Shown in pieces: positions 541-39,284 of a stretch of DNA of 64,000 nucleotides (its first letter is position 1; the number at the start of each line of letters is the position of its first letter). The DNA is taken from positions 736,001 to 800,000 of the forward strand of contig CM000434.1 of the NCBI GenBank assembly GCA_000165345.1, read 5' to 3'. The position numbers and the translations under genes were made by a program. Below the pieces are notes generated by a model. That model made no database searches. It was given only the letters and a program-made list of their open reading frames with translations, and was not told the DNA's origin.

Positions 541-615
541 TTTTGGTACCCAACATTTATTTTTTTTCAAATACCGGTATATAATACATGTTTGGCGCCC
601 GCATGTTTTGGCGCC
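541..615. promoter_or_regulatory. Composite promoter cassette: GGTACC (545-550) – ACCGGTATATAA (573-584) – CATGTTTGGCGCC (588-599) – GCATGTTTTGGCGCC (601-615)
   Basis: Read directly from the sequence. The same ordered cassette recurs at 19725-19767. It lies in the divergent region between the partial minus gene (start 235) and the INCENP-like gene (1124). Confidence 0.5.
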
Positions 616-660
616 ACGTTATTATTTTTTCATTAATATAAGGTAAAGGGGAAAAAAGTA

Positions 661-700
661 ATAGGGAGGGGTGGAGAGGGGAGGGGTTTGGGTAGGGAGG
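661..700 (+). repeat. G-run purine tract (potential G-quadruplex) in the INCENP-like 5' region
   Basis: 'gggaggggtggagaggggaggggtttgggtagggagg': seven GGG(G) runs within 40 nt in a ~70% AT context. Confidence 0.5.
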
Positions 701-1123
701 ATAAAATAAAATTTTGATAAATGTGAAAAAAACTTAAGTGGGAAGGGTGGAAAAGGAGTTAAAAGAAAAATATTGATTTGCAATTAATAGTTTAAATCTT
801 AATTTGAATATTGGGAACATATAGGAAGTGCTCACGTTGCAATCCTTTAGATACGGATTGAGGGTGAGGCATCGATCCACGCCTTAGTGAGAGAGGTAGT
901 ATAAAAGGTATTAAAAGGAGGTAATATTGGGCTTATTTTTCAGCTTTAGCATTGAGATTTATCGTATTAAGGGAATCTGAAGAGTGTCAAGACGAGAAAA
1001 GGAGAGAAGTTACTGAGAGTAACAAATTGCATGCAAAAGTGTGTGGTTACGGAGAGAGAAAGACTGGATTTAGATTATATAGAATAGAGCCAGAGGCAGA
1101 TAGAGACTATAGAATAACAAGAT

Positions 1124-3610
1124 ATGGAGACTGAAAATAAAGTTGAGGTGATTGACTTTGAGATTGGTGAGAAAGGAAAGGATAATGCAGATACAAAAGA
1201 AATGGAACAACTTCTGGCCCTGGACGACTTTAAAAAGGTGATTGGACTATTAGAAAGAGCAAAGGAATCAAGCCTAAGGAGGTTGGATAGGACTTTATTA
1301 CTAATAGAAGAAAATTTTGAGCAAGTGAGTAAAAGGTTCGATCAAGACGATCTATCATGCCTGGATTATCGCATGTGTGATGTGGATCTTCCTGAAATGG
1401 AGGTTGATCCAACTGAAGAAGAAATTAACAATACTGTGAATTGTTTTTTGAGCAAATTAGTAGAAACAGGAAAGATCCAGCTTAGGCAGCTAAAGAGAGA
1501 GCTGAGCGAAGTGAAGGAAGTCACGGAAAGTATCCTAGTTTCAGAGGTAAATGAAGAAGAGAATAAACAAATCTTTGAAAGCCCTAAACCAAAAAAGGTC
1601 AAGGATGAAAGCGGGTTTGTAGCGAGTATGAAACGTCTCTGGGAAAACAAGACCCCAAAGCTTTCCTCAATTTGGAGGAGGAATGAAGAGAGTAAGAACC
1701 TGATTGTTAATAAACTTGGAGTGTCCAGATTGGATAAGTTGGATATTGTGGACGGCTTTTTGTTTAAAGACGATGATACAGAAAAGAAGGATGGAGTCAG
1801 TTTGGATATAGAAATGGAAAGTATTGTGGAAGCTGAAGCTGATGTTGAGGTTGATCCTGAGACTGAATTTGGGGTTGAGACAGAAATTGAAGGAACTGGT
1901 GAGGCAGAGGCAGATATGGAGCAAAATATAGAAACAGAAACGGAAGTGATGACATCTGCCAGAAATAATACATCCTTCAAGTCGATTTCTAACGAGGACG
2001 TAATTTCTCCAAAACCTCCAAACGCCATTTTGTCTATGGGAGGATCATCTCCACTTCAGAGCCCACCTTTGTTAGTTCTCACTCCTTCTACTCCCATCCC
2101 GATTGTTCCAACTACAATATCTCACCAGGCTCAAGGAGGAGAAGCAAGGAACTCCATCGCAAAGGTTCAAGTAGGGGAAACCTCTGCAGGGACAGAAATT
2201 CTAAGGACTTCAGTAGTTATCGGTTCGGGTGAGATCGAAAGCCATACAATAGAAGGAAAAGAAAGAGTCTCAAAGTCTACGACAAATGCTAACGAGGATT
2301 CCCCTCTACCTCCAAGGCCAATCAGAAGACAAACAAGTGAGAAGATGCAGGAAAAAGGAGAAAATAGGGTTGAGGAAGTTGAGGGAGGAGAGCAGACTCC
2401 AATTCTAAAGGGAGGATTGGAGGGAACTCCCATAGATAAAAATAGAGAAGAGGTGGGAGAAAATGATTTTGTTCGACCAGAGAGAATTAGCCATGTAAAA
2501 AAAAGTGGATTGAGGTCCATTCTCCACCACTCTGCCAATAGGATTCCTTTGGAACAGACGATGTCTTCCTCTGGGCTTGGAACAGGAGCCGGAGGAGGAG
2601 CTGGAGCAACTGCAGGAGCTGGAGAAAACAATAATACTGCTAATAGAGGAAGTATAAATACTGTCAGACAAAGTAGAGGATCTACAGCTGCTAATAACTT
2701 GGTGAAAACTCCAATCAACAAGGGATTCTGCGAAATGGAAACAGAAGGGAAGGACAAACTTAGAATTGGAGAAAGCCCATGTAGAAGGTACCATAAACGC
2801 CTGAAACTACTTCCTCCTGTAAATCCAGATGAATGTTATGTGCTAACAGACAGTGAAGATGAACAACAGAACTGTGGAGTAGGAGGAAATGGAGGTGGAG
2901 AACTTAAGATTACTAAAGCTCAAAAGAAAATACCACTCTGGGCAAGAAGCATGAATTGGATCCCAAAAATGAAGGAACAAAGAAATGTAGATCCATTCAG
3001 TATCTTTGGAGACTCTTGTATGTTCATGGACCTCGAGGATGTATTCCAAAGACCTTGGTATATCTCCACCATCGCTAGAGATAACAGAATCAAGTCGTGG
3101 CAAAATGATCGGCTCACCTCTCTCAACTGGAGTGAAGACTCTCTTACTTCTGACGAACTCAGACAATACAAGATGAGAATGAACCTCTATATTGATAAAT
3201 CCAATGAAGTCTATGTCACAGAACCTTGCTTCACTCCTTCCCCAAATCCTCTTGCCAATGGCGCATGGAACCATATAAACAAACAAAGAATCAACAGTGG
3301 AGGCACCACAGTCATTCGAAAAGCTCTAAATCTATCCATCCATAGACTTAACAATAGCATCTCCAATAAACCCAACTCCTCCATTCCTTCCTCTCATCTA
3401 GCTCCCCCATCCTCTTCAGTCTCATCTTCCAAACTTGGCGAAGCTACCTTAAACCATCTACAAACAGACAAAAATTCCTCCATTTCCAATATTGAAAACA
3501 ATAATATCGCAAACTTCCTCTCCAAACCAATTAATTCATCCAAAGACTGCCCCAATGTCGCACATCAACACAGCAATCACATTATTGGTAATTCATCCTT
3601 CCTTCAGTAA
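1124..3610 (+). CDS. INCENP-like chromosomal passenger protein; low-complexity E/S-rich body with a C-terminal IN-box
   Basis: 828-aa ORF, ATG at 1124 verified. C-terminal segment 'KIPLWARSMNWIPKMKEQRNVDPFSIFGDSCMFMDLEDVFQRPWYISTIARDNRIKSWQNDRLTS' follows the INCENP IN-box pattern (IPxWA … DP..IFG … DLE[ED][VI]F … R…SW). The rest is acidic/Ser-rich and unalignable. Confidence 0.55.
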   Translation: METENKVEVIDFEIGEKGKDNADTKEMEQLLALDDFKKVIGLLERAKESSLRRLDRTLLLIEENFEQVSKRFDQDDLSCLDYRMCDVDLPEMEVDPTEEEINNTVNCFLSKLVETGKIQLRQLKRELSEVKEVTESILVSEVNEEENKQIFESPKPKKVKDESGFVASMKRLWENKTPKLSSIWRRNEESKNLIVNKLGVSRLDKLDIVDGFLFKDDDTEKKDGVSLDIEMESIVEAEADVEVDPETEFGVETEIEGTGEAEADMEQNIETETEVMTSARNNTSFKSISNEDVISPKPPNAILSMGGSSPLQSPPLLVLTPSTPIPIVPTTISHQAQGGEARNSIAKVQVGETSAGTEILRTSVVIGSGEIESHTIEGKERVSKSTTNANEDSPLPPRPIRRQTSEKMQEKGENRVEEVEGGEQTPILKGGLEGTPIDKNREEVGENDFVRPERISHVKKSGLRSILHHSANRIPLEQTMSSSGLGTGAGGGAGATAGAGENNNTANRGSINTVRQSRGSTAANNLVKTPINKGFCEMETEGKDKLRIGESPCRRYHKRLKLLPPVNPDECYVLTDSEDEQQNCGVGGNGGGELKITKAQKKIPLWARSMNWIPKMKEQRNVDPFSIFGDSCMFMDLEDVFQRPWYISTIARDNRIKSWQNDRLTSLNWSEDSLTSDELRQYKMRMNLYIDKSNEVYVTEPCFTPSPNPLANGAWNHINKQRINSGGTTVIRKALNLSIHRLNNSISNKPNSSIPSSHLAPPSSSVSSSKLGEATLNHLQTDKNSSISNIENNNIANFLSKPINSSKDCPNVAHQHSNHIIGNSSFLQ

Positions 3611-4346
3611 TTTGTGCATCACGTGAGGGTTCCCGCGCGCGCCTCCATCTGCATTTTACTCTAAGTTGGAATATTTCTAGTGCTTCTAAAAGTTAATTAA
3701 GGATTAATAAGTTGAATATCTTTCAAATAATTGTTTATATATATACGTATGTATGTATATGCTTATTTATTTATATTTCTCAGAAATTTCTGACTGTTGT
3801 ATTCCCTATTCTTCAATATTAGTTTCCTTATCATCAATTCTCCCTTACCAATACTGCCAATCCCTTATAAATTTGATTCTTGAATCTTTTCAAATCTTTA
3901 AACAACTTTCCTTTTGGCTTTGGAGTCAATCCTTCCCTCCCCCCATCTACCCACTCACCAATTCTTTCGTTCACCCCTCCCCCTCTTCTCTATTCTGAGA
4001 TTGGAAGGTTTCGCATGTTTTGGCGGTAAAATGTGAGTCAGAATTATTAGGTAAAGGATTATCCCACTAAAGTATAAATACATCAAATACGCTTCAAATC
4101 TCAACTAAGCAAGTAAAAAGGAGTGAATATACCTTAGGATTACTGCTCTATAAAAATAGGCAGGAAGGGAAATTAAGCAAGAAACACGGCTTTATAGCCT
4201 TGTTAAAGTACATCAGCTAAAAATAGAATGAATCTAGGGAGGAGCAAAAGTAGAGGCTTGGCTTAGGAATCATTTTGATGTGATGTTAACTAAGTGTTAT
4301 AGGAAGAAAACTTTAACCCACAAAAAGAAGAAGAAAAATTCTTGTA

Positions 4347-6824
4347 ATGATTAAAGAAAGAATGAAAATACAAGCCATGTTTTTCTTAAATATCATCAAA
4401 ATTATATTTATTATACATTTTTTCACTTTAATACACGGTACCGAATTCAAATTAGATCATGATCAAGAATTTGACCAATTTGAAAAGTTATATAGAGAAA
4501 AAAAATATGAGAAGCTATATAGAGAATTAAAAGAATGTGAATTTAAAGACTCAAGATGCGCACAAATATTGGGAGAAATGTATTTCATAGGATTGCATGT
4601 CGATCAAGATATTGTTACAGCAATATCATACTGGAAATTATCTTCAGATTATGGAAATTCTGAAGGTCAATTTTGCATGGGTATGGTTTACACGCTTTTT
4701 CCGTTCTTGGACTCACTTGAGTGCATCACTAATAGTCATGTTGGCGCCAAACACCCAAAAATTACATTGGACAATTTTCTAGAAAATGGTAGTCCGATAC
4801 CATGTGATTTTTATCCATATTCAAAAGATGACGCTCCAAAATTCTTAAAAAAGTATAAGTCTCTAATAATTAATCACTCTTTTAATGATCAAGATTACGA
4901 AAAGGATGCAAATGTTATAGAAAAAGTGTCAAAATCTATACAGCTTTCAAATCTATATTTATATTTTTCTTCACTCTCTGGTCATACTGGAGCACAGTTA
5001 GCCTTAGGATTTAGATATGAGCATGGACTTGGAGTACCTAGATCATGTGAAGCTGCAATATCTAACTACATTGAGACAGCAAAAACTTCAGTTTCATTTA
5101 AAAAACAAGGATTTTCAGAAAAAGAACAACTAATACGCCTTTCAATTCCGGACTGGGAGCCAATGAAAAAGCTTTTTAATCCAACAGAAAATAGGAATCG
5201 TGAAGATCTAGCTATAAATTTGGCAGAATCTGGAAGTATTACAATCCAACTAGCCTTAGCTAAAAGATATCTATTAGGAGTAGATGGATTTAAACAAGAC
5301 GCTACTAAAGCTTATAAATATCTAAGAAAAATTGCTGATAAAGCTAAATCAATGGTTGGAGTTGTATTAGATATTCCTTCTACACTTATTTATGGCGAAG
5401 CTATTGGGTTACTTGGTTACATGCATGCATTAGGTATCGGTACCTCTCCAGATCTAAAAACTGCATCTGAATATTTTTCAATTTCAGCCTTTATATATAA
5501 CGATCCAGGAGGCCATAATGGTATGGGATATGTTTATTTTCATGGATGTGAAGGATTTGAGAGAAATTTTAGATTAGCTTTTCACCACTTTAATGAAAGT
5601 GCTTTTCATTTATTTGCTGATGCACAATATAATTTAGCGTCTCTTTATCTTACCGGTATGGGTACCCCTCAATCATATTCAGATGCAATTTCTTGGTATA
5701 CAAGAGCTTATGAGCAGGGACATCTTCCATCTGCATATGCACTTTCACAGTTAAATTTGAATGGGCTTGGTATAAATAGAGATTGTAATACAGCTTTGGG
5801 ATTTCTTAGAGAAATTATACAAAGATCAAATTGGACAAATAATTTGATTTCAATTACCAATAAATTTTCAAGATCCAAAAGTAAAGATGAAAAGAATCAA
5901 ATGATTCTCAGTACAATGAAACTTGCAATTACAGGATATGCACCATCTATATCTAACTTAGCCTCTTTATTAGATCAAGATCTTAGAAATAATAAACATC
6001 TTGAATGGGTATCGTCCATAATTGGAATCCCTCTTCCAGATTTTTCATTTAAGCCAAATAGAGTTGAGTACTGGTTTAAGTTATTATCAGCCAAAGTTAT
6101 CCCAAAAATCCTTTTAAAGTTTTTTCCTGATCTTGAAAATATTAATTTAGATACTTATAATATAGGTAACGAAAATAATGAAAAAGGTATCGAAAATATT
6201 AATAAATGGTATTTACCACAAATGTTTTTAGAATTTTCAATATATAATGAGAATGTTGATTCAATTATAAGATATGGAGATTACTCATACTATGGAAAAG
6301 GAGTCGAACTTAGATATAAACTTTCTCCAAAGCTTTTAGAGAATTCTTCTAATTCTAGCTGGATTAGACCTTTAGAGCTCGAAATTGTTTCTATGGAATC
6401 TCCAAATTATTTGGCAGCATTCGATCTTTATAAGATTGTCTCAAATAGCATAATAACTTCTAGATGGATGATTTCTCCTATTTCAGAAGCCTCCTTTAAT
6501 TTAGCATTTATGGCTCAATTCGGAATAGGAATTGTGCAAGATCTTCATTTTGCAGAAAAGTATTATAAAAAGATGGTTGAAACTGGGAGTATCAATAGAA
6601 TAAGCAATGGTATTGGAGATCTTCTTATCTATTTTACGCAAATCCATAGAAGTCTTAATAAAACTATTAATTCTTTAAATAAGATTTCATATCAGGACCT
6701 AAAGGCCAATGGGAATTTCTTCCTCATTCTCAAATTAGGCCACCTCTTACTTTTCCTATTGATTCTCAAACTACTCGTCTATATTTATACTAAATGGACA
6801 AAAACTAGAGGAGATTCTTCTTAA
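4347..6824 (+). CDS. Sel1-repeat (TPR-like) membrane protein, Hrd3/SEL1L-like ERAD adaptor
   Basis: 825 aa with an N-terminal hydrophobic signal (MKIQAMFFLNIIKIIFIIHFFTLIHG). Multiple Sel1-like repeats (…AQLALGFRYEHGLGVPRSCEAAISNY…, GMGYVYFHGCEGFERNFRLAFHHF, AQYNLASLYLTGMGTPQSYSDAISWYTRAYEQGH). C-terminal TM helix (FFLILKLGHLLLFLLILKLLVYIY). The true start may be a downstream in-frame M. Confidence 0.6.
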   Translation: MIKERMKIQAMFFLNIIKIIFIIHFFTLIHGTEFKLDHDQEFDQFEKLYREKKYEKLYRELKECEFKDSRCAQILGEMYFIGLHVDQDIVTAISYWKLSSDYGNSEGQFCMGMVYTLFPFLDSLECITNSHVGAKHPKITLDNFLENGSPIPCDFYPYSKDDAPKFLKKYKSLIINHSFNDQDYEKDANVIEKVSKSIQLSNLYLYFSSLSGHTGAQLALGFRYEHGLGVPRSCEAAISNYIETAKTSVSFKKQGFSEKEQLIRLSIPDWEPMKKLFNPTENRNREDLAINLAESGSITIQLALAKRYLLGVDGFKQDATKAYKYLRKIADKAKSMVGVVLDIPSTLIYGEAIGLLGYMHALGIGTSPDLKTASEYFSISAFIYNDPGGHNGMGYVYFHGCEGFERNFRLAFHHFNESAFHLFADAQYNLASLYLTGMGTPQSYSDAISWYTRAYEQGHLPSAYALSQLNLNGLGINRDCNTALGFLREIIQRSNWTNNLISITNKFSRSKSKDEKNQMILSTMKLAITGYAPSISNLASLLDQDLRNNKHLEWVSSIIGIPLPDFSFKPNRVEYWFKLLSAKVIPKILLKFFPDLENINLDTYNIGNENNEKGIENINKWYLPQMFLEFSIYNENVDSIIRYGDYSYYGKGVELRYKLSPKLLENSSNSSWIRPLELEIVSMESPNYLAAFDLYKIVSNSIITSRWMISPISEASFNLAFMAQFGIGIVQDLHFAEKYYKKMVETGSINRISNGIGDLLIYFTQIHRSLNKTINSLNKISYQDLKANGNFFLILKLGHLLLFLLILKLLVYIYTKWTKTRGDSS

Positions 6825-7278
6825 ATCCTAATGATATTGAAATAATATAATTTTTTATTTTCCTTTATATATTTTCTCCTATTTAATTAATCTTTTTAAC
6901 ATTATTCGCCTATGCATGTTTTGCGCGCCAGTTTGCCGGTGTTTAATTTAAAAGGTAACGTGTCTCGTAATTATATAAAATATTATTAAAAAATTTTATT
7001 CAATATTATTTAATAATATATGTGAAATGTTAATAAATAAAAAAAAATTTAATCAGACCAAAAGGCGGCAACTTCTAATGGCAATTAGAAATTTCTGTCT
7101 ACAATTTTAAATTGTCAAAAATTAATGAATTAAATATTAAATTGCTGATCATCTTATTTAAATTATTAAAATTATATTCCGCGTAAATAATTAATAAAAG
7201 AATAATTCATCCAAGTTCCCATTGAAACTAAGTAAGAAGTCTTGTTTTAAAAGATAAACTTCAACTCGAGAAAAAAAA

Positions 7279-7716
7279 ATGGCAGATACTGAACAAAAGA
7301 AGAGAACCTTCAGAACTTATAGTTACAGAGGTGTTGACCTCGACAAGCTCCTTACCATGAAATTGGATGAGGTTGTTGAGCTTTTACCAGCACGTAAAAG
7401 ACGTAAGATAGCCAGAGGTTGTCTTAACAGAAGAACTGCAGCTTTTATCGCAAAGCTCCGCAAATCTAAGGCTGAATGTCCAATGGGAGAGAAACCTGTT
7501 GCTGTTCGTACCCATTTACGTAATATGGTTATCCTCCCAGAAATGGTTGGTTCTGTTGCAGGTGTCTACAATGGTAAGACTTATGTTACTGTTGAAATTA
7601 AGCCAGAAATGATTGGAATGTACCTTGGAGAGTTCTCTATCACTTACAAGCCAGTACGTCATGGTAAGCCAGGTGTTGGTTCAACCAGTTCTTCCAGATT
7701 CATTCCTCTAAAGTAA
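7279..7716 (+). CDS. RPS15: 40S ribosomal protein S15 (uS19), intronless
   Basis: 145 aa, aligns along its full length to eukaryotic RPS15 (…[68 protein letters not shown]). Confidence 0.95.
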
Positions 7717-13812: not shown

Positions 13813-15255
13813 TCAAATTTTTTTCTTAAAATGTGACTTTTTGATATTGTTGAGCTTAACTTTGAGCATCCAAGAAGGTACATCTGCGCCAGAAGACTTT
13901 ATAACCTTTGCAATGGACTTAATTTTTGGAATGTCTCTTAAAGTAAAGAAGGTTATTGCATATCCAGTTCTTCCAGCACGGCCACAACGTCCCACTCTAT
14001 GAATATAATTACTTGGAGAATGAGGGAAATCATAGTTAACTACGCAAGAAACGTTCTTAAAATCAACTCCTCTAGCCATTAAATCAGTGCAAATTAATAT
14101 CCAAATCTTACCAGTCCTAAACCTCTGAATAATGTTATCTCTCTTTACTTTTGGCATATCAGAATGTATAGCTTCCACAATCAAGTTATCATACATAAGT
14201 TTCTTAAAGAGTCTTTGAGCATCATCCTTGCTGTTTGTGAATACAAGAGTAGGAAGCATTATTTTGCCTTGCTTAATAAGTTGTCTTAATGATTCAATTT
14301 TTGCATCATCTTTTGTGACACAAACAAGCTCTTGAATGATGGTACTTGAAGCAGCTAATCTATGGCCAAGTGTTACTTTCACTGGAGATTTCATTATAGA
14401 ATCTGCTAAATTTATTACAATTTGAGGTAATGTTGCAGAAAATGCTGCAATCTGAACCTTTCCACCCTTTGGAATATTTGAATGTGATAGTATTTCATCA
14501 ATTTGAGGAGCAAAACCCATATCCAATAACTTATCAACTTCATCTAAAACAATCATTGAGCATCCTTGCAAATTAATTATATTATTACGACAAATATCTG
14601 CTAAACGATATGGAGTTGAAACCGCTATATCTAACCTCTTTGTGTTACTTTCTTGAGCTTTATCAATCTTGCCACTAATATATCTGCAACGATACTTTTT
14701 GCCATGAATATCTAAAATTATCTTAATCTCACGAACTATTTGCTGTGCTAACTCTCTTGTTGGACTTAAAATCAAGTTTGCACAGTATACTTTATCATTT
14801 TTTAATCTGCCAAGTATTGGAAGTATATAACATAAAGTTTTTCCCGAACCTGTTGGAGATTGTACAAGCAAATCAACTCCAGAAAATAGCAGAGGGATTA
14901 CCTGAGACTGGATTGCTGTTGGCTTTTGGTATTTCAATATGTTCATTATATTATCTAAAACCCAATCTGGAAGATTTCCACATTCTTTTATTTCTTTAAA
15001 TGTTAGTAATGGCATAGTCTTATTGTCTCCATCTACTGCTATATTCATTGAATTCCTCTTATCAATAATATATTCCTCATTTATTATCGTTTCTCCTTTA
15101 CTTTCTTTATCTTCTTTTTCAAAATTCTCTACGGAATTGCCATATTCTTCCAATCTTGCTTTTTCATAAGATATCTTCTCCCAAAGCTCTCTAGATTTTC
15201 TTCCGTTTGTAAATGATGTACCTGAAGCCAAAATTGAGAATGATGAACGATCCAT
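13813..15255 (-). CDS. DEAD-box-family ATP-dependent RNA helicase (motif II variant DEVD), ROK1/DDX52-like
   Basis: 480 aa. Motif I GSGKT, Ia PTRELAQQ, II VLDEVD, III SAT, VI HRVGRCGRAGRTG. ATG at 15253-15255 verified. Confidence 0.8.
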   Translation of the reverse strand: MDRSSFSILASGTSFTNGRKSRELWEKISYEKARLEEYGNSVENFEKEDKESKGETIINEEYIIDKRNSMNIAVDGDNKTMPLLTFKEIKECGNLPDWVLDNIMNILKYQKPTAIQSQVIPLLFSGVDLLVQSPTGSGKTLCYILPILGRLKNDKVYCANLILSPTRELAQQIVREIKIILDIHGKKYRCRYISGKIDKAQESNTKRLDIAVSTPYRLADICRNNIINLQGCSMIVLDEVDKLLDMGFAPQIDEILSHSNIPKGGKVQIAAFSATLPQIVINLADSIMKSPVKVTLGHRLAASSTIIQELVCVTKDDAKIESLRQLIKQGKIMLPTLVFTNSKDDAQRLFKKLMYDNLIVEAIHSDMPKVKRDNIIQRFRTGKIWILICTDLMARGVDFKNVSCVVNYDFPHSPSNYIHRVGRCGRAGRTGYAITFFTLRDIPKIKSIAKVIKSSGADVPSWMLKVKLNNIKKSHFKKKI

Positions 15256-16630
15256 TCTTAGTTTGTTATTGTAACTATTGCCACTAACTTATGCTTTAAG
15301 CTTTATTTAATAATTTTCTAAGCTAATACCTAATAAGAACTTTCCAATTATTATTTAGTCTCCAAATACAGCTTTCGTTATTTATCTAACTTTCTTTTTT
15401 TTTTATTTCCGAGAAAACTCCTTAAAGGCATACTTAACCTCTAATTTATATTATAAGATTCCTACGAATATTGGCGCCAAAAGTCAAATTATACAAATAT
15501 TGGTTGAGTTGAATAATGCATTAAGAATAAAATAAATTCAAAATAAAAAGAAACATATTATAAAAATATAATTATAGTTAGAAAAATGGTTAGCCTTACA
15601 AGTAATTCTATTATTAAAAATAACAATGTAAGTTGAACTGTACTAAGGACTTAAGATGCTTTAACTTCAAGTTAGCTAGTAATAGCAAGAGAAAAGTCAA
15701 GAAGATTATCAGAATTCCTTTTATTTCACTAAAAAGATTTTCAAACCTAACATGTAATTTTAATTCATCACTTAAACCAACTTGACATCAATCCCTCAAA
15801 CTTGAAATCTGTTCTGTCCTCAATATCATTTCAAAATAAGCATTAAAATAAAATAGAGAATTCCAATTTAGTATCCTCAATAAGCCTTATAGATGCTAAA
15901 AATAGTTTAAATTAATTAAGTTAACTCAAAATATTTATTTCTTTAATAGTTTTAATGGTTCATCAGAAATTTGAGCGAAGATTTCTGTTTTCAACTGCTA
16001 TTTAACAGATTCAATAGGGGAATCTTTGTTTCATCATATTAAACCATTAATGACATTATAAACTTACATTTTAATTTAAACCTTGAAAAAAAATAAGAGA
16101 ATATTTACTTCTGATTCATTTTGTCCCAAATAAATTTTTAGTACTCCGTGAAATACCAATTAAGACAAAAATCCAGAATGGCGCCAATTGTCATGGATGT
16201 GGCGCCAGAACATGCAATTTGAAGAAACCATTCAGAGAATGTTTTGAAGCAACATCAAGAATGGCAATATAGAAAAGAAGCAAGAAATCCGTATGGGAAA
16301 TACAAGTCATACACCGAAAGAAAATAGTAAAAACACGGTTTAAGTCATGAAATCTTTAATGACATTGCAATTGTATGCTATCTAAAAAAATATATATGTA
16401 GGTAACAAGTTCAAAGTAATGTTGCAAAGCTAATAATATTCAAACTCAAAATTGAAAATAGATACTGGAAAACTTTATATCAATTTAGCAATTTATAATA
16501 TGTAACCATGTGTGTTCCTAATGGATAGTAGCATTGTAAGTATCAACACTTGCAATAATAATCTAAACGTTATTCCATATAAATAAAAACCAAAAGTGTC
16601 AATTCTACATAAGAGCTACAAGTGCAATAT

Positions 16631-17242
16631 TTATGAGCAGCATCCGCCTTGTCTAATTGGCTGAGCTCCTGCTAACTTGGGACCTTGTTGCGCAGAGCCC
16701 CTTGTATTCTGACTATTCACTTGAACTCTCTTCTTGATCTCACCAGCCATTGTATGGAATGCTTGCTCAACATTATAAGCGTTTTTAGCAGAAGTTTCTA
16801 TAAATTTTATTCCATGAGAATCTGCAAGTTCTCTTCCCTCGTCTGATGTTACCACTCTCTTGCTCACAAGATCGCACTTATTACCTACTAACAATTTATT
16901 AACATTCTCCATTGCGTATCTATCAATCTCTTGGATCCATTGTTTAACATTATCAAAAGAATCTCTATCTGTAACATCATAGACAATAATGATTCCATGT
17001 GCCCCTCTATAATAACTAGAAGTAATTGTTCTAAACCTTTCTTGTCCTGCAGTATCCCAAATCTGTAACTTTACTGTCTTATTCTCCAAACTTATTGTTC
17101 TTATCTTGAAATCAACCCCAATTGTTGAAATATAACTGTCAGTATAGGTGTCATCAGCAAATCGTAAGAGTAAGCATGATTTACCTACACCACTATCTCC
17201 TATTAAAAGTAGTTTGAATAAGTAGTCGTACTCAGGATTCAT
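16631..17242 (-). CDS. RAB1: Rab1/Ypt1 small GTPase
   Basis: 203 aa. [22 protein letters not shown]…[14 protein letters not shown]…WDTAGQERF…GNKCD…ETSAK…GGCCS, a diagnostic Rab1 sequence with a C-terminal CC prenylation motif. Confidence 0.95.
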
Positions 17243-17692: not shown

Positions 17693-17770
17693 TATTATAA
17701 TTTAATGGTGCACGTAATTTTGTGGCGCCAGAGTCATGCATGTAAAATAGTGTATTGGATTTTGCATGCG

Positions 17771-19399
17771 CTAGTTTACTTTGACATTGGGCTTTTTATG
17801 CAAGGGTTGTGAGCTTGATTTATCAGAATTCTGTTTAAGAGAACGAGAAAGCATTCTGTCTCTCTTACCGGGTTTATTCTTTGACTTTTTAATAGGTGAA
17901 ATGGTGTTAAGAATTTTAGAATCTCCTGAAGTATTTTTGATTTGTTCTTGTTTAGAATAATCAGAGTCAGCTACTGGATCAATCTTGTGTATAAGATCAT
18001 TAGTCCATTTTTCTTTGCCCCAAGTCTTGATGTAGCTATTTGACTTGCTTCTGTCTTTTTTAATTTGTTTAGGAATATCATTCGAAATCTTTTTAAGCTT
18101 AGCAACGAAGAAGCCATCCATATTATTGAGATGAGGGTATATTCTTCTAGTATATGTGGAAATTGTAGGATTAAATCTATGCTCCCTAAACTTGGAGATA
18201 CCATTTGATCCAATTTCAACTCCTAAAGGAACCAACTTAACATGACGAGTTCTTAAAATATAGTCAATAACCATCTCATTTTCCTCAATAGAAATAGAAC
18301 AAGTAGAATAAACAATATACCCACCTGTTTTGCTATTAGCATCAACCATATCAACAGCAGCTTTAAGGAGTTCCTTTTGCAACAAAGAGTGTTGAGCCAA
18401 CTCTTTAATGCTTCTCTTTACCTTAACAGATGGATCCCTTGCAATAATTCCAAGACCTGTGCATGGAGCATCAAGTAGTACTCTATCAAGTTTTGGAAGG
18501 AATGATCCTAACTCCTTACCATCCATATTAACTACAATACTATTATTAATACCCATTCTATGAAGATTAGCAATCAAACCAGTACATCTGTCCTTTCTTA
18601 AATCATTTGCATATAATATGCCAGAGTTCTTCATTAATTGTCCAATATAAGTTGTTTTACCACCTGGAGCTGCTGCCATATCAAGAATCTTCTCTCCTGG
18701 TTGAGGGGCTAATGCCATAACTGGAATAAGACTAGAAGCGCTTTGAATCATATAATGTCCGGCAAGATACTCTGGAGTTGCACCAATTGGAACACTACTC
18801 GAATATATTGTAAGTCCAACCTTGGTCCATTCACCTGTAGGATCTACGTTTGCACCTCTAGAAATCAATTTCTGTGCCAAATCTCTTCTTCTACTCTTAA
18901 GCATATTGGTTCTAATTGTTAAAGGTCTCTTATTTTCATTTGCCTCAAAGAAATCTAAAGCTTCTTTTGGAGAAAACAAGTTTAATATGTAGTTTGTAAG
19001 CTCAGTATTATATCCATATAGGATTGATATATCATCCGCTAATTTATCCATCAATTCACTTCTGGATGCTTTTTTTGAGTTTAAGCCTTTATATTCTATA
19101 GTGGCTTTACCTGGACCTTTTGAGTCCAAATACTCAACTATTGATTCTACTCTTGATTTTATTGTTTCCAAATCTTCACCAGTAACTCTTAATCCAAATG
19201 GGCCAATAGTATCGTCATCACCTTTCTTAATATTTATGGCAATTTCATCTTCATCATCCCTTTCTTGATCAAAATTTGTTACAAATTCGTCATTTATCTC
19301 CTCTCCTTCCTCAGATTGTAAATCAGAATCTGAAAATCCCTCGTTTGAGAAATGATCTTCAGTCTCCGAATCCGTAGATAATACGTCCTTACCCTTCAT
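17771..19399 (-). CDS. NOP2: NOL1/NOP2/Sun-family rRNA (cytosine-C5) methyltransferase (Nop2)
   Basis: 542 aa. SAM-binding motifs (…LDMAAAPGGKTTYIGQLM…, …LLDAPCTGLGIIARDPSVK…) and a catalytic TCSI motif. Acidic N-terminus and basic C-terminal tail are typical of Nop2. Confidence 0.85.
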   Translation of the reverse strand: MKGKDVLSTDSETEDHFSNEGFSDSDLQSEEGEEINDEFVTNFDQERDDEDEIAINIKKGDDDTIGPFGLRVTGEDLETIKSRVESIVEYLDSKGPGKATIEYKGLNSKKASRSELMDKLADDISILYGYNTELTNYILNLFSPKEALDFFEANENKRPLTIRTNMLKSRRRDLAQKLISRGANVDPTGEWTKVGLTIYSSSVPIGATPEYLAGHYMIQSASSLIPVMALAPQPGEKILDMAAAPGGKTTYIGQLMKNSGILYANDLRKDRCTGLIANLHRMGINNSIVVNMDGKELGSFLPKLDRVLLDAPCTGLGIIARDPSVKVKRSIKELAQHSLLQKELLKAAVDMVDANSKTGGYIVYSTCSISIEENEMVIDYILRTRHVKLVPLGVEIGSNGISKFREHRFNPTISTYTRRIYPHLNNMDGFFVAKLKKISNDIPKQIKKDRSKSNSYIKTWGKEKWTNDLIHKIDPVADSDYSKQEQIKNTSGDSKILNTISPIKKSKNKPGKRDRMLSRSLKQNSDKSSSQPLHKKPNVKVN

Positions 19400-19706: not shown

Positions 19707-19767
19707 TTGGCGCCCAACCAGTAGGTACCGCATGTAGCTACCGGTATATAAGCCATGTTGGCGCCCA
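19707..19767. promoter_or_regulatory. Composite promoter cassette upstream of NOP2: GTTGGCGCCC (19707-19716) – GGTACCGCATG (19725-19735) – TACCGGTATATAAG (19739-19752) – CATGTTGGCGCCC (19755-19767)
   Basis: Same order and orientation as 541-615. It lies 310-370 bp upstream of the NOP2 ATG (19399, minus). Confidence 0.5.
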
Positions 19768-19888
19768 TTTTCATTTAAAATAATTGATTAATCAAATGTG
19801 TGGAAAAATAAATATAAAATTAAAAAGTAATAAAAATTTAAATTATATTGATCAAAATTGATTTGTATTCAACTTTTCTTAGTATTAA

Positions 19889-21646
19889 TTAAAATATAGA
19901 AATGTTTTTGAGACTGAGTTGAATAGGCCTGGTTGTAATTACTATTCCAAAAATTATAAAAGCGCTTGTAATTGCGACAACATTGAAAGTCATTGTATGG
20001 TCTAAAAAAACCGTTGGAATTATATTTATGTTGTGATATATAGTTTTATAATCATTATTATTTTCCTTTAAATCTTCTTGAATTTTCCAATAAGATAGTG
20101 AAGGAGGAGATATCTGCCCTCTTTTAAGCTTTGCACCAAGATATACAAGTGGGAGAAAGTATTTTTGAAATTTGAATATAACAATAACATTTGTATTTGG
20201 AGTTAAATCGATACAAAAGTTTACCAATATATTTTCTGATTTATAAATCTTAATATTTAGAAACTGTAAGGCTTTAAAAGAGTCCAAAATTAGAATATCA
20301 TCATTTTTGTTATGTATATCTATAATATTTTTGATCACTTTGGATCTTGCTAATAAGACTCGGGTATTGTAGAACCAAGGATTAATATATCTTGGGAACT
20401 GCTCCCAGTGACAAATTCTTATTGTTTTCTTAGAAAGAAGATTATCAAAAGCAATTATTAAACTTCCTTCTGTTCTATCATTCTTAATGTCATTTCCTAT
20501 TACTGACTTGACATAGGATCTATCTATATGTAAAAAGTTTAACTTTGACTTATTCTCAAGTTGTTCCCGAGGATGTAAAGCAGAAATATCTTTGATCCAT
20601 TTTAATCCACATACTTGTTTTAAAAACTCTAAACTTAATTTTATTGTTGTGTTATTTAGGTTTAATGTATTCATCTCTAAGCTAAATAGATCCTCATGTA
20701 TTGGGTGTTTATATGGAACAATATTGCAAATATCGTTATTTTCATGATCTAATACATTTTTTTTCAGAGGTATACTATTTAAAAAATAACTAATCTTGGA
20801 CTCTGCAACAACTGAACAAATAAAATCTTTGTAATCTGGTTCTTCAAGATCAATCAATGACCATAAAGTCTTGTTTTGCTCCTTTTCTATTGTATATAAA
20901 GGTTTTCCTTTCAAAACTATATTAAAGAAGATCCTGAAATATGCTTTTTTTCCTCTTTTCTTGAGCTCTAATCCTATTGATTTGTACGATGCTTTTACAA
21001 AAGAATCCAATGATATATTCTTGAGTATGCCATAAGATCCTATTTTACTTGAAAAGTCTAAAGTTGTACAAGGAAGTAACTTTCTCCAGCAATTCAAATT
21101 ATCCATACATAAAGTATCGTCATAGTTATTACATATTTGTCTATTTAAACCGGTACCTTTCTTAATTTGAGTACAACTCTTTTCTCTATCTAATGAATTA
21201 CTAAAGACTGTCAAAGAATTACACATCATCGAAGAAACTCTAGTTAATATGGATGACCATAACTCTTCTGAAACTAAGCTTGCATCTGAAAACCCCAGAT
21301 TTAATATTGAACCTGTAGTATAAATATCAACAGGAGGTTCTCCCCAGTTAACTGTTCTCCACATTCCTTGTGTTGAAACTACTAACAAATCGTCAAGTAA
21401 AGGAATCTGCAATAATCCCAAAAGTTCATTTGGAATAAACTTATCATCTTTATTGGTCAAATTATTATCTACTTCTATCTCCAACTCGTATCCTAAAAAA
21501 TATTTAGTTTTATGAGGTAGTCTATTAATTGTAGTCTTTTCCAGATACTTTTCCCTATTTTCGTTACTTTGAACAAATCCAACTAATACTATAAATATCA
21601 AAGATATTGTCAAGAAACTCATTTTGAATAAACTCATGTCCTTCAT
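19889..21646 (-). CDS. PIGT: GPI-transamidase component PIG-T/Gpi16
   Basis: 585 aa with a signal peptide and a C-terminal TM helix. Conserved blocks match PIG-T: 'LLVVSTQGMWRTVNWGEPP' (cf. LHLSFTQGFWRTRYWGPP) and 'DNLNCWRKLLPCTT' (cf. ENLTPWKKLLPCSS). Confidence 0.7.
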   Translation of the reverse strand: MKDMSLFKMSFLTISLIFIVLVGFVQSNENREKYLEKTTINRLPHKTKYFLGYELEIEVDNNLTNKDDKFIPNELLGLLQIPLLDDLLVVSTQGMWRTVNWGEPPVDIYTTGSILNLGFSDASLVSEELWSSILTRVSSMMCNSLTVFSNSLDREKSCTQIKKGTGLNRQICNNYDDTLCMDNLNCWRKLLPCTTLDFSSKIGSYGILKNISLDSFVKASYKSIGLELKKRGKKAYFRIFFNIVLKGKPLYTIEKEQNKTLWSLIDLEEPDYKDFICSVVAESKISYFLNSIPLKKNVLDHENNDICNIVPYKHPIHEDLFSLEMNTLNLNNTTIKLSLEFLKQVCGLKWIKDISALHPREQLENKSKLNFLHIDRSYVKSVIGNDIKNDRTEGSLIIAFDNLLSKKTIRICHWEQFPRYINPWFYNTRVLLARSKVIKNIIDIHNKNDDILILDSFKALQFLNIKIYKSENILVNFCIDLTPNTNVIVIFKFQKYFLPLVYLGAKLKRGQISPPSLSYWKIQEDLKENNNDYKTIYHNINIIPTVFLDHTMTFNVVAITSAFIIFGIVITTRPIQLSLKNISIF

Positions 21647-21905
21647 AAGGACCTTCCCACACTCAAAAAGTCTCCAAGCTCCTCCCTTCTCTTTAACTCA
21701 AATTATACTCTTTCAATTCCTCTTCAAACCTTAACTATATTTCCTTTTATTAATTAAAATGTTTTGGCGGGCTTTCTGGCATCAAAGAAATTTTACAAAA
21801 ACTTGAAATCAAGTTAAGAAGTAGAAATAATGAAATTTTGATGTGTTCTTTGTGTGAATTAGATGAATAGAGCAAAGTACTTTTAATCTGATTAAGAATA
21901 CAGAG

Positions 21906-22583
21906 ATGTCAGATGTTAGTGAAAATACGCTCAAGATTATTAAAGCAGCAAATAGGTCTCTTCAGCTTCATCAAGATAGGCTAGGAAAGACAAAAATAGC
22001 AGAGAATAAGGAGAACTCTCAATTTAAGAGCCAAAATAAAATAGAACTTGGGGATGAAAAGTCTTCAAGATTAAAGACTAAGCGAGTAAATTCAAAAAAA
22101 GAGATAGAAATAGTAACAAAGAAGCAACATGACGAGGAATCAATAGAAAAAACTCAAGAAAAAGTCAGAGAACTTGAAGACCAGATCTCTAAAATACTGG
22201 AATATTCATCAGTACTTGAAGAAACTTTAAAAAAAAATATTGACCAAACAAACAAAATTAATAAGAACCATTGCTGTTGCAATCAGCAGACCCACAATAA
22301 GAAACTTGACAAATTAATGATTGCTGATATAGTAAAAGATGTTGTTTACTCACTAAATAGAAAGAAAATACAACCCCAAGTCAAACCCTACATTATTCAC
22401 ACTAAAACACAATCAAAAATTAATTCTAATCTATCAATTTACACATCAACCGTGGAATATCTTTCAAACTTCATCCTAGAACTATGTATTGATGATATTC
22501 TAACCTCTTTAGACACTTCCATACACAATTTTTCTGTCAAACTTGTAAAAGGAAAGTATTTTGAAACTGAGACCATCCCATAA
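21906..22583 (+). CDS. hypothetical K/E/Q-rich protein
   Basis: 225-aa ORF, ATG verified. No recognisable domain. An E2F-like composite lies upstream (21758-21772). Confidence 0.45.
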   Translation: MSDVSENTLKIIKAANRSLQLHQDRLGKTKIAENKENSQFKSQNKIELGDEKSSRLKTKRVNSKKEIEIVTKKQHDEESIEKTQEKVRELEDQISKILEYSSVLEETLKKNIDQTNKINKNHCCCNQQTHNKKLDKLMIADIVKDVVYSLNRKKIQPQVKPYIIHTKTQSKINSNLSIYTSTVEYLSNFILELCIDDILTSLDTSIHNFSVKLVKGKYFETETIP

Positions 22584-22755
22584 ATACTTGGCGCCATGTG
22601 GCGGGAACTCTGGGAAATTAAGAGTAATTGGATAAGCTTGAGTAAATAAATTAAAGCAAGATAGGAAAAAAATAATAAGGAATTCAAAATTTAAAGAATT
22701 GGCCATAAGAGAAAGATTTTTAGGAGTATTTCTTAAGTAAGAGTATAAAAAGAAG

Positions 22756-23075
22756 ATGTTAAGCAAGGTACTTAGTTCTATAGTTTTTTGTCTGGTTAGT
22801 TTGTTTTGTTTTGCAAACGTAAGTTTAATAATTACACAACAAAAGTTGTGAAAAGAATAGGAATAAAATTTAACTTTAACCTATTTTGTTTTGTTTTTTA
22901 GGCTCAATCTGTACCAAGAGATGCAACAAGTATACAAATTACACTCTGGTTGAGTGTTTCTCTGGTTGCAACTTTGATAGTCTTTTTATATTTTATGATT
23001 AAGACTGCTCCAAATACTGGAAGAGACCCCTTGTTGAATATGAGAATTAAATCTGAGGCAGATAAATCAAAGTAA
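22756..23075 (+). CDS. small (78 aa) secretory/TM protein, 2 exons; not in the ORF track
   Basis: Exon 1 is 22756..22818 (MLSKVLSSIVFCLVSLFCFAN), a signal-peptide-like hydrophobic stretch, followed by a GTAAGT donor at 22819. The intron has a poly-T tract with acceptor AG at 22900-22901. Exon 2 is 22902..23075 (AQSVPRDATSIQITLWLSVSLVATLIVFLYFMIKTAPNTGRDPLLNMRIKSEADKSK*), in phase 0. E2F-like boxes lie ~150 bp upstream (22587-22607). Confidence 0.55.
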
Positions 23076-23592
23076 GCCATCTATTAGATAGCTTAATTGA
23101 AATAGTTATTATTTGTGAGCAAGCAATAGCATCCATAGAATTTTAAGCTCCGCATTATATTCAGAATGTCTTTCTTTTATATCTATCTCTTTATATAATT
23201 ATGAAATATCTTCCATAATTGTCCCACATATTATTAATTTTGTATTACTACTTAAATCTACCATTCTTCCCTTTGCTTTTTTTTTCCCCTTTTTCATCCA
23301 TATTTTCTTCTATTATAGGTACCTTATTATGTTTTGGCGCCAAAATAATACATGATCCTGTGAGTAGGAAAAGTGGTTGAAAAGGAAAAATTGAAGAGAA
23401 TTTGTGATTAGGGAAATAAAGTAGCTTCTTATTTTTTTCTTGTAATAATTTTGAGGTTTGAATAATGAAATAGATTTCCCAGATCTTGGATTTTTTTTAT
23501 TATTACAGAAATAAACTTGCAAGTAATTTTGGAAATGAGATTTCAAGTTCTGGGTTGAATAAGTGATTGAAAAGACAAAAAAGAAAATTAAA

Positions 23593-39143: not shown

Positions 39144-39284
39144 TATTCTTATCAGAGAAAATGAGAAAGAATTTAAATACTTTAATTCTTTTCGAGATCA
39201 AAGCAAAAATGGGTTTGGCGCCAAAATCATGTATATGAAAAAAATACCAAGTAAATAGTCTAAAAGTTGATTTGGAAATAGGAG

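Follow-up and report, generated by a model that had tools for sequence, protein, structure and literature searches.

Cryptosporidium is the only apicomplexan genus that keeps E2F/DP, and the E2F box is its commonest promoter motif. C. parvum encodes two or three E2F genes and two DP genes, mostly as predicted components (PMC3734150, PMC12246861), and its E2F-like motifs 3 and 4 (DTTGSCGCCH and TTTGGCGGGAAV) represent the most abundant motif found upstream of its genes (PMC3734150). The motif was first noticed on chromosome 6 and has been described by Bankier 2003, Mullapudi 2007 and Oberstaller 2013, both motifs being first noted in Bankier 2003, the chromosome 6 paper. "No outstanding pattern" of orientation or position was recorded (Mullapudi 2007), and how one motif yields many expression patterns has been raised as a question in the literature (PMC3734150, PMC12246861).

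The other closely related system is the ApiAP2 motif AP2_1. TGCAT/TGCATGCA was bound by several C. parvum AP2 domains on protein-binding arrays, with cgd2_3490 and cgd1_3520 among the candidates (PMC4117751), and the corresponding upstream motifs are motif 1 (BGCATGCAH) and motif 7 (ACATGY) of Oberstaller 2013. Among motifs lying no more than 100 bp from lncRNA start sites, E2F and AP2_1 take the two leading places (PMC7840661), and their co-occurrence in upstream regions has already been reported for gene clusters as well as lncRNAs. Sporozoite ATAC-seq placed E2F motifs in open chromatin, where AP2 motifs were not reported (bioRxiv 10.1101/2025.01.17.633476). The Toxoplasma ribosomal-protein promoter element TRP-2 is grouped with AP2_1 as a close known system.

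In metazoans, the DREAM-bound CDE/CHR element combines an E2F-like CDE with a CHR (TTYGAA) across a 4-nt spacer. The composite described here is similarly bipartite, in that an E2F-like box lies a few bases from a second short element, which in CDE/CHR is read by another subunit. It differs in that the partner is CATG(T) instead of TTYGAA and the spacing is preferred, whereas that of CDE/CHR is fixed. No TTYGAA-derived word appeared among the enriched flank 5-mers of the three species compared (C. parvum, C. ubiquitum and C. canis), which sets the composite apart from CDE/CHR. Of the DREAM components, neither Rb nor LIN54 is known from Cryptosporidium, for which retention is reported only of DP1 and the orthologues of RPD3 and LIN-53 (PMC3734150).

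The window analysed is a 64-kb stretch of DNA whose proteins exactly match the C. parvum chromosome 6 records BX526834.1 and CP029785.1, the Sel1 protein showing 100% identity to C. parvum Iowa II Sel1. Counting both strands and each palindrome once, it contains 20 copies of GGCGCC, nine of GGCGGG and four of GGCGCG. E2F-like cores are 18-fold denser in intergenic DNA (1.91/kb) than in coding DNA (0.106/kb), and often occur in pairs in the compact promoters of housekeeping and cell-cycle genes, including Rad9/INCENP, Sel1, RPS15, RPL4, a DEAD helicase, Arf, RPN11 and RPC1. Longer words are overrepresented as well, with eight matches to TTTGGCGCC (0.03 expected) and seven to GCATGTTTTGGCG at up to two mismatches (0.54 expected). 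At least one T lies immediately 5' of 50 of the 66 GGCG[CG] half-sites, and at least two Ts precede 28 of them. Rfam and tRNA scans of the window returned no matches, so known RNA genes do not account for the long intergenic regions that carry the boxes.

The cores keep their position relative to the ATG across six species and are identical in C. ubiquitum in 21 of 29 cases, compared with 25.6% for any 4-mer, and in C. canis in 15 of 21. With the core, a T-rich 5' or A-rich 3' flank (TTTSGCGC), promoter location and purifying selection all present, the boxes are predicted to be canonical E2F/DP sites, built of GGCGCC, GGCGGG or GCGCGCC and the usual T-run. In core, T-run/A-run flanks and promoter enrichment they agree with the published C. 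parvum E2F-like motifs, whose descriptions, in contrast to the composite of the window, end at the T-run without a CATG word.

CATG as such is almost equally dense in intergenic (3.16/kb) and coding DNA (3.05/kb). Within 0-9 nt of an E2F-like core, 16 CATG words were found against 2.1 ± 1.5 expected (P<0.0005), the expectation being obtained by moving the cores at random within their own intergenic regions. In an unbiased word test on the 13 nt on either side of the cores, CATG was the top non-E2F 4-mer, observed in 12 of 28 flanks in C. parvum (1.27 expected, p=1e-9), 10 of 25 in C. ubiquitum (p=1e-7) and 6 of 23 in C. canis (p=1e-3). In each of these three species the oriented 5-mer CATGT headed the non-E2F words, and the enriched non-E2F 5-mers were CATGT, ATGTT, ACATG, GCATG and TGCAT. 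The sample is a single window with about 28 core blocks, to which orthologous sites elsewhere do not add independent observations. The CATG half is a real, specific and non-random partner of the E2F core, and the two-part nature of the element claimed by the first-pass annotation, an E2F-like core with a CATG word, thus held up.

The same adjacency recurs in C. hominis, C. meleagridis, the chipmunk genotype I, C. ubiquitum and C. canis (each P<=0.002), while the orthologous promoters of C. felis showed none (1 pair against 0.8 expected). That a few sites arose by chance or are shared through ancestry, with no function, is scarcely credible overall. Permutation and word tests were significant in several species whose intergenic identity to C. 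parvum is just 44-62%, which leaves chance a very improbable account of the CATG forms, although it may still apply to copies with ATG only. An ATG lies just 5' of five of the nine TTTTGGCG copies (p about 4e-7 to 1e-5), but the ATG-only T4 copies are limited to the parvum/hominis/meleagridis clade. A literal unit of ATG, T-run and GGCG was therefore rejected: it is present at 13 of 66 half-sites in C. parvum and at chance level elsewhere (1/37 in C. ubiquitum, 1/56 in C. canis and 1/53 in C. felis). Since the ATG-only copies are also unconserved, CATG was taken as the unit instead. A general rule of a G before the T-run was likewise discarded, having shown a weak and inconsistent trend only. 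The T-run asymmetry and the ATG-only look-alikes are both easily over-read.

The gaps between CATG and core in the window are 1, 1, 2, 2, 3, 4, 4, 4, 4, 5, 5, 5, 5, 6, 9 and 9 nt. A fixed spacer of four Ts had been proposed in the first-pass annotation, which itself held that a spacer of variable length would tell against it; with a spacer varying between 1 and 9 nt, the proposal falls in its strict form and what is left is a mode at 4-5 nt. This gap is taken by 8 of the 16 C. parvum pairs (p=0.007) and by 6 of 10 in C. ubiquitum (p=0.006), and would place the two centres ~9-10 bp apart, about one helical turn. Spacers are not made of T only, as ACTCT, ACAATT and CAAAG also occur. Orthologous promoters frequently, though not invariably, share the gap: it is retained for RPS15, Sel1, Arf, RPC1 and zfCCCH/PUB, and shifts at RPN11 from 1 nt in C. 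parvum to 8 nt in C. ubiquitum and C. canis.

The adjacency could lack mechanistic meaning if E2F, CATG/AP2_1 and GGTACC/CCGGTA sites were simply squeezed into a small nucleosome-free patch. GGTAC words do cluster by the cores (5 of 10 within 25 nt, 0.95 expected), E2F boxes are paired, divergent promoters can be as short as 141 bp, and CATG may stand gene-distal or gene-proximal to the core (6:4). Such packing nevertheless seems unlikely as the explanation, because the gap histogram peaks sharply, with 16 pairs at 0-9 nt, after which three successive 5-nt bins hold 1, 3 and 1, and the 4-5 nt gap is both preferred and conserved across species. Moreover, most of the intergenic regions involved measure 360-1375 bp, so space is not limiting.

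The reading favoured here, to which we assign a probability of about 0.55, is that an E2F/DP site stands beside a separate CATG element of ApiAP2 type, making a modest composite of two known motifs that is apparently undescribed. No description of immediate E2F/AP2_1 adjacency with a preferred 4-5 nt gap was found in the literature searched, which is absence of evidence only, and a search with the exact composite strings matched only unrelated primers and constructs. The putative second cis-element, with a CATG core, would tend to adjoin the box and to read (G/A)CATGT toward it. It resembles AP2_1 (TGCAT/GCATG) and the published motif ACATGY, the partner in the window being mostly GCATG or ACATGT. 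TGCATG occurs at 6914 (RPS15), 16203 on the minus strand (DEAD), 17726 on the minus strand (Arf) and 38210 on the minus strand (RPC1); the other partners are CGCATG (601, 4013), ACATGT (586, 26365), ACATGA (39213) and CCATG (19753, 22597, 16180). Relative to the full AP2_1 palindrome most copies are half-sites, and with only four TGCATG and one GCATGC, at 38210, this counts against a two-factor reading.

The alternative of a single factor, in which E2F/DP or a tightly bound protein reads CATGT-Tn on the T-run side, that of the E2F subunit, as one long site, draws on the same scarcity of full palindromes and on the lack of a reported AP2 motif in E2F-rich open chromatin. CATGT is also oriented to the core, usually running straight into the T-run, and its commonest form is a contiguous 13-15-mer, (G/A)CATGTTTTGGCG. 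A single reader appears rather improbable, however, given a gap of 1-9 nt, a spacer that is not always T, and a CATG on the non-T side of GGCGGG at RPC1 that C. ubiquitum shares. A majority of the cores lack a CATG partner. Of the C. parvum partners, only 7 of 14 hold their position in C. ubiquitum (p=0.04); for C. canis the figure is 3 of 10 (p=0.12). Other intergenic CATG words, distant from cores, are conserved equally well (14/22 and 7/18, respectively), and against C. meleagridis the partners (5 of 9 conserved) do no better than the 63% background. CATG therefore behaves as an element in its own right. The same limited conservation of the partners, the missing adjacency in C. felis and the ATAC-seq result nevertheless weigh against the favoured reading too.

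On the preferred reading of two separate elements, an ApiAP2-type factor and an E2F/DP dimer would occupy adjoining sites and bind cooperatively or competitively; the identity of the bound proteins and their interaction are inferred here, whereas the sequences, their enrichment and adjacency, the distribution of gaps and the conservation between species are shown directly. The usual gap would put both centres on the same face of the helix, and the combined output could join general E2F-driven transcription to a stage-specific input. The preferred 4-5 nt gap and conserved partner word would then offer a concrete promoter grammar, in which E2F alone is general and a subset with E2F plus CATG receives the extra input. 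A stronger version, possible though doubtful, is that (G/A)CATGT-T(2-3)-SGCGCS is a spacing-constrained element with centres about one helical turn apart, conserved across the intestinal Cryptosporidium species, at which ApiAP2 and the ancestral E2F/DP sit side by side and cooperate. If true, it would link the E2F and ApiAP2 systems physically and possibly preserve a snapshot of the hand-over from E2F to ApiAP2 in Apicomplexa. Promoters that can now be named for mutation are those of RPS15, Sel1, Arf and zfCCCH/PUB.

In the earlier annotation the CATG half was also thought to confer strand directionality on an otherwise palindromic box. The T-run is already part of the consensus sequences TTTSGCGC, DTTGSCGCCH and TTTGGCGGGAAV, so its asymmetry is not new. 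In the 1999 E2F4-DP2 crystal structure of Zheng, the T-run is said to orient the heterodimer already, and the box is thus asymmetric without any second half. Directionality relative to genes was not established either. The T-run/GGCGGG orientation was forward in 11 and reverse in 5 cases in C. parvum (p=0.21), the corresponding ratios being 12:6 for C. ubiquitum and 7:9 for C. canis; in tandem promoters CATG was gene-distal in six and proximal in four (p=0.75), and the strict T-spacer form gave 5:0 (p=0.06). The placement of the 587/601 pair and the 21758 copy upstream of plus-strand genes is uninformative, because both lie in divergent promoters (Rad9/INCENP and Gpi16/g225).

CATG could instead be an initiator-like transcription start element adjoining the E2F box. 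E2F motifs do lie within 100 bp of mapped C. parvum lncRNA start sites, and the conserved CATG is gene-proximal at the g876 and RPC1 promoters. The idea is nonetheless highly improbable, since CATG is gene-distal in 6 of 10 tandem promoters, the distance from site to ATG is 330-950 nt in many cases, and transcripts starting just 5' of a forward ATG would acquire upstream start codons.

All eight strings quoted in the first-pass annotation are present in the window, six of them at exact coordinates; CATGTTTGGCGCC starts at 587, not 588, and the range 23328-23345 is four bases too long. Every composite listed contains an E2F core, with the exception of the weaker GGCGGT at 4022. The best-conserved copy, GCATGTTTTGCGCGCC (6914..6929, plus strand), lies 356 nt 5' of RPS15 and retains TGCATGTT(T/G)T(G/T)CGCGCC, without any change of spacing, in C. 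parvum, C. hominis, C. meleagridis, the chipmunk genotype I, C. ubiquitum and C. canis. At 4013..4027 (plus strand), 327 nt 5' of the ATG of Sel1 (Hrd3-like), GCATGTTTTGGCGGT keeps its 4-nt gap as GCATGTTTTGGCGGG in C. ubiquitum and GCATGTTTGGGCGGG in C. canis, with CATG gone in the chipmunk genotype I (ATATTCTTTGGCGGG). The Arf GTPase gene has ACATGCATGACTCTGGCGCC (17724..17743, minus strand) 487 nt 5' of it, with the AP2_1-like TGCATG 5 nt from the core; ATGCATGA-NT-TTGGCGCC is kept in C. hominis, C. meleagridis and C. ubiquitum, and C. canis has TGCATGGCGCC. The 141-bp divergent zfCCCH/PUB promoter holds a single central box, ACATGATTTTGGCGCCAAAC (39213..39232, minus strand), with the same sequence in C. 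ubiquitum, ACATGATTTTGGCGCCAAAA.

Conservation is partial at other copies. In the divergent Rad9(-)/INCENP(+) promoter, CATG, a 3-nt T spacer and an E2F-like core make up ACATGTTTGGCGCC (586..599, plus strand), whose ACATGT and core are kept in the chipmunk genotype I (ACATGTTGGCGCC) and C. ubiquitum (ACATGTAGGCGCC). The second box of this pair, GCATGTTTTGGCGCC (601..615, plus strand), 16 bp from the first, keeps its core but has no CATG in those two. The distal pair of GGCGCC boxes GCATGTTCTGGCGCC and CCATGACAATTGGCGCC (16180..16215, minus strand), the latter at 16180-16196, precedes the DEAD-box helicase gene by about 930-950 nt and retains its cores in six species; CATG is kept in C. hominis, shifted in C. 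ubiquitum (ACATGTGAATTGGCGCC), and gone in C. meleagridis, the chipmunk genotype I and C. canis. About 218 nt 5' of RPN11, the double box ACATGTGGCGGGTAAAATTTGGCGC (26365..26389, plus strand) includes ACATGTGGCGGG at 26365-26376; its CATG is displaced in C. ubiquitum and C. canis and replaced by CGTG in C. meleagridis. In the RsmB promoter, CCATGTTGGCGCC (19753..19765, plus strand) reads away from the gene and so counts against a direction rule, and its CATG is kept in C. hominis only. The double box TTGGCGCC-ATGT-GGCGGGAAC, as a whole TTGGCGCCATGTGGCGGGAAC (22588..22608, plus strand), 5' of a 78-aa gene, retains its cores but not its CATG in C. ubiquitum (GGCGCGTGTTGGCGGG) and C. canis (GGCGCCATTTGGCGGG).

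Two of the copies first put forward as composites, at 21758 and 23328, together with an equivalent at 38226, have ATG only; none of the three is conserved in C. ubiquitum, and C. hominis has already lost two. AATGTTTTGGCGGGC in the divergent Gpi16/g225 promoter (21758..21772, plus strand) keeps TTTTGGCGGG in six species, with ATG changed to ATT in C. hominis, TCG in C. ubiquitum and TAG in C. canis. The palindromic box TATGTTTTGGCGCCAAAATAATACATGA (23328..23355, plus strand), about 259 nt 5' of the 876-aa gene, has a 5' ATG that is not conserved in C. hominis (ATATTTTGG), C. meleagridis (GTGTTTGG) or C. ubiquitum (CACTTTTGG); a gene-proximal ACATGA lies 7-9 nt 3' of the core in all six species. 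Similarly, TTATGTTTTGGCGGGCTTTGCATGCAAAT (38210..38238, minus strand) lies 595 nt 5' of the gene for RPC1 of RNA polymerase III, and it is the gene-proximal GCATGC of this copy, not its 5' ATG, that is conserved as the partner (C. ubiquitum TTCTTTTTGGCGGGCTTTCCATGCAAAT).

Copies absent from the earlier annotation are those at 26365, 22588 and 19753 on the plus strand and at 38210, 39213 and 16180 on the minus strand, along with a coding copy of the composite at 4736-4752.

The proteins encoded in the window (G+C ~30%) are exact matches to C. parvum chromosome 6 records (BX526834.1, CP029785.1 and others), and the Sel1 protein shares 100% identity with that of C. parvum Iowa II. Public gene calls on matching contigs, together with ORFs, give a gene order that begins with Rad9 (ATG at 235, minus strand), followed on the plus strand by INCENP (1124-3610), the Sel1/Hrd3-like gene (4347-6824), RPS15 (7279-7716) and RPL4 (9074-11311). 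A minus-strand series comprises a 491-aa gene (11602-13259), the DEAD helicase (13813-15255), Arf (16631-17242), an RsmB-type methyltransferase (17771-19399) and Gpi16 (19889-21646), and a plus-strand series a 225-aa gene (21906-22583), a 78-aa gene (22756-23075), an 876-aa gene (23593-26223), RPN11 (26589-27536) and the glycogen branching enzyme (28532-31624). Further along lie RPC1 (32021-37636) and zf-CCCH/RING (38262-39143) on the minus strand, the PUB-domain gene (ATG at 39285) on the plus strand, and SPX/VTC and RPL32 (44529-44942), both on the minus strand, with more genes beyond; gene models at 44-49 kb are approximate. The 1871-aa RPC1 product bears RNA_pol_Rpb1 domains; public sources name it the largest subunit of RNA polymerase III and not RPB1. 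Fully syntenic orthologous regions were compared from eight relatives, namely C. hominis, C. meleagridis, chipmunk genotype I, C. ubiquitum, C. canis, C. felis, C. bovis and C. andersoni; the sample is a single 64-kb window with ~28 core blocks, and sites in orthologues are non-independent observations.

The GGCGCC/GGCGGG-type core together with the T-run directly before it is a canonical E2F/DP site. The E2F consensus includes the T-run, which, in the E2F4-DP2 structure attributed to Zheng in 1999, is said to orient the heterodimer, so a second half is not needed for asymmetry of the box. The first-pass annotation had ascribed strand directionality of an otherwise palindromic box to a bipartite site of CATG half and E2F-like half. 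[quoted passage not shown] 2003 on chromosome 6 itself. The E2F motif is also dominant in open-chromatin peaks of sporozoites (bioRxiv 10.1101/2025.01.17.633476).

Judged from the sequence, the E2F half clearly appears functional. Six-base cores are 18 times denser in intergenic than in genic DNA (1.91/kb vs 0.106/kb), and they lie at a near-constant distance from the ATG in C. hominis, C. meleagridis, chipmunk genotype I, C. ubiquitum, C. canis and C. felis. The core of the 876-aa gene is found at -259, -258, -253, -250, -367 and -223, with C. canis as the outlier, those of the 225-aa gene at -142 to -125 across species, and the proximal DEAD-helicase box at -201 to -236 in seven species. In pairwise alignments with C. 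parvum, 21/29 cores were perfectly kept in C. ubiquitum and 15/21 in C. canis, against a retention of arbitrary 4-mers of 25.6% and 12.3%, respectively.

The CATG half, a CATG(T) word near the core, is a real partner of the core. CATG shows no intergenic excess as such (3.16/kb vs 3.05/kb in genic DNA), yet 16 of its copies are found at 0-9 nt from a core vs 2.1 +/- 1.5 expected when cores were relocated randomly inside their own intergenic regions (P<0.0005), and the histogram of CATG-core gaps in 5-nt bins reads 8, 8, then 1, 3, 1. An unbiased 4-mer count over the +/-13-nt core flanks, excluding words of neighbouring E2F boxes, placed CATG at the top; with each flank oriented toward the core, the leading non-E2F 5-mer was CATGT in each of C. 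parvum, C. ubiquitum and C. canis. CATG stands beside 12/28 core blocks in C. parvum vs 1.27 expected (p=1e-9), 10/25 in C. ubiquitum (p=1e-7) and 6/23 in C. canis (p=1e-3). The adjacency excess recurs in C. hominis (11 observed vs 1.4 expected), C. meleagridis (6 vs 1.0), chipmunk genotype I (5 vs 0.75), C. ubiquitum (12 vs 1.9) and C. canis (11 vs 1.7; each P<=0.002), while the orthologous region of C. felis gave no excess (1 vs 0.8). Core-adjacent CATG is position-conserved in C. ubiquitum in 7/14 cases (p=0.04 vs background) and does no better than intergenic CATG elsewhere (14/22), so that CATG behaves as an independently conserved element which tends to adjoin the E2F box.

The strings quoted in the first-pass annotation are all present in the window, although one start is 587 rather than 588 and one range exceeds the length of its string. 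Within the window, TTTGGCGCC has 8 matches vs 0.03 expected, GCATGTTTTGGCG with up to two mismatches has 7 vs 0.54, and ATG precedes 5/9 copies of TTTTGGCG (p between 4e-7 and 1e-5); further copies occur at 26365, 22588, 38210(-), 39213(-), 19753 and 16180(-), plus a coding copy at 4736. The fixed four-T spacing proposed there did not hold, as the gaps in C. parvum are 1, 1, 2, 2, 3, 4, 4, 4, 4, 5, 5, 5, 5, 6, 9 and 9 nt. The mode is 4-5 nt in both C. parvum (8/16, p=0.007) and C. ubiquitum (6/10, p=0.006; both p-values post hoc), which separates the two centres by 9-10 bp, or roughly one helical turn. The gap is held at RPS15 in six species (TGCATGTT(T/G)T(G/T)CGCGCC), at Arf in four (ATGCATGA-NT-TTGGCGCC), at Sel1 in C. 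parvum, C. ubiquitum and C. canis (GCATGTTT(T/G)GGCGG), and at RPC1 (GGCGGGCTTT(G/C)CATGCAAAT) and zf-CCCH/PUB (ACATGATTTTGGCGCC) in C. parvum and C. ubiquitum; at RPN11 it drifts from 1 nt in C. parvum to 8 nt in C. ubiquitum and C. canis. Chance, or independent elements densely packed into very short promoters, could also bring the two words together, but the sharp gap peak, the gaps conserved between species and the recurrence in species with no more than 44-62% intergenic identity to C. parvum argue against both.

Orientation was counted in tandem intergenic regions only, others being uninformative. In C. parvum the T-run/GGCGGG orientation was toward the gene in 11 cases and away in 5 (p=0.21); the corresponding ratios were 12:6 for C. 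ubiquitum and 7:9 for C. canis, and an earlier study likewise saw no pattern in how the GGCG motif is oriented (PMC1779779). In its strict form, with a T-rich spacer of 4 nt after CATG or ATG, the element was forward in 5/5 tandem cases (p=0.06); the 19753 copy points away from its own gene, and the 586/601 pair and the 21758 copy both lie in divergent promoters. CATG is gene-distal to the core in 6 promoters and gene-proximal in 4 (p=0.75). An extended specificity of the E2F/DP complex itself would make CATG and core a single long site, against which stand the variable gap, the placement of CATG on either side and the equal conservation of CATG far from any core.

Three copies with the 4-nt T spacer have ATG without the preceding C, and in orthologous promoters no conservation was found upstream of their T-run: AATG at 21758 is replaced by ATT in C. 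hominis, TCG in C. ubiquitum and TAG in C. canis, TATG at 23328 by ATA in C. hominis, GTG in C. meleagridis and CAC in C. ubiquitum, and TATG at 38226 (minus strand) by TTC in C. ubiquitum. Both 23328 and 38226 have a conserved CATG on the opposite, gene-proximal side of the box. The literal ATG + T-run + GGCG form accounts for 13/66 half-sites in C. parvum, 1/37 in C. ubiquitum, 1/56 in C. canis and 1/53 in C. felis.

These comparisons are best read as showing an E2F/DP site directly adjoined by a CATG(T) element, the latter most likely an ApiAP2-type (TGCAT/ACATGY) half-site, with the binding proteins of both inferred; an initiator-like role for CATG is an unlikely alternative. GCATGC/TGCAT is the ApiAP2 'AP2_1' motif, 'ACATGY' is also a listed motif (PMC3734150), and several C. 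parvum AP2 domains bind TGCAT/TGCATGCA (PMC4117751). Preferential placement of the CATG(T) element one helical turn from the core would permit cooperative or competitive occupancy. Each of the two motifs is well known, and upstream regions that contain both were already reported (PMC3734150; PMC7840661); their direct adjacency and the preferred spacer are apparently undescribed, no description having been found in the searchable literature, which is absence of evidence only.

E2F-like boxes are often paired, 10-21 bp apart (594/610, 16180/16201, 17448/17460, 22590/22600, 26371/26385, 45380/45394, 59839/59850), and the pairing is maintained in orthologous promoters of other species. In the C. 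bovis and C. andersoni regions corresponding to ~22-46 kb of the window, gene order is kept but the boxes are almost absent from intergenic DNA (TTSSCGS at 0.18 and 0.41/kb vs 1.4-2.8/kb in C. parvum, C. ubiquitum, C. canis and C. felis), which suggests that the promoter code has turned over on a large scale within the genus.

GGTACC (17 sites vs 3.1 expected) and CCGGTA/TACCGGTA (27 vs 3.1) are strongly over-represented in the window, at 545, 574, 8862, 19724, 19741, 23318, 45366 and 59816 plus coding copies. The intergenic copies lie ~8-17 nt from E2F-like cores, GGTAC words occur within 25 nt of a core in 5/10 cases in C. parvum vs 0.95 expected and in 4/10 in C. ubiquitum (P=0.03), and the promoters of RPL4, RsmB and the 876-aa gene show conservation of this arrangement; GGTACC/CCGGTA may form a third part of the promoter module.

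The Arf-DEAD helicase intergenic region (15256-16630) is unusually long (1375 bp; 1267-1375 bp in all species) and bears a second, distal GGCGCC pair ~860-950 nt upstream of the DEAD ATG in 5/6 orthologues examined, replaced in C. felis by a CCCGCC-type core. Scans of this region found no Rfam family and no tRNA; it may hold an unannotated transcript or a long 5' UTR. The zf-CCCH/RING-PUB divergent promoter (39144-39284) spans only 141 bp, with one central palindromic box TTTGGCGCCAAAA ~70 nt from either ATG and the same layout in C. ubiquitum. Downstream of the box in the RPS15 promoter (6905-7010), blocks GCCGGTGTTTAAT and AGGTAACGTGTCTCG are conserved in five species, C. canis being without the second. 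The Rad9/INCENP promoter carries after its E2F pair a G-rich, GAGA-like tract GGGAGGGGTGGAGAGGGGAGGGG (640-700), which resembles published G-box and GAGA-like motifs, adjoined by AAGGTAAA(A/G)GG(A/G)AAAAAAGTA, conserved in chipmunk genotype I and C. ubiquitum. Directly past the INCENP stop (3630-3665), a GCGCGCGCC run is followed by (C)ATGCATTTTAC, of which chipmunk genotype I, C. ubiquitum and C. canis share the TGCATTTTAC part, where C. parvum has CATCTGCATTTTAC.
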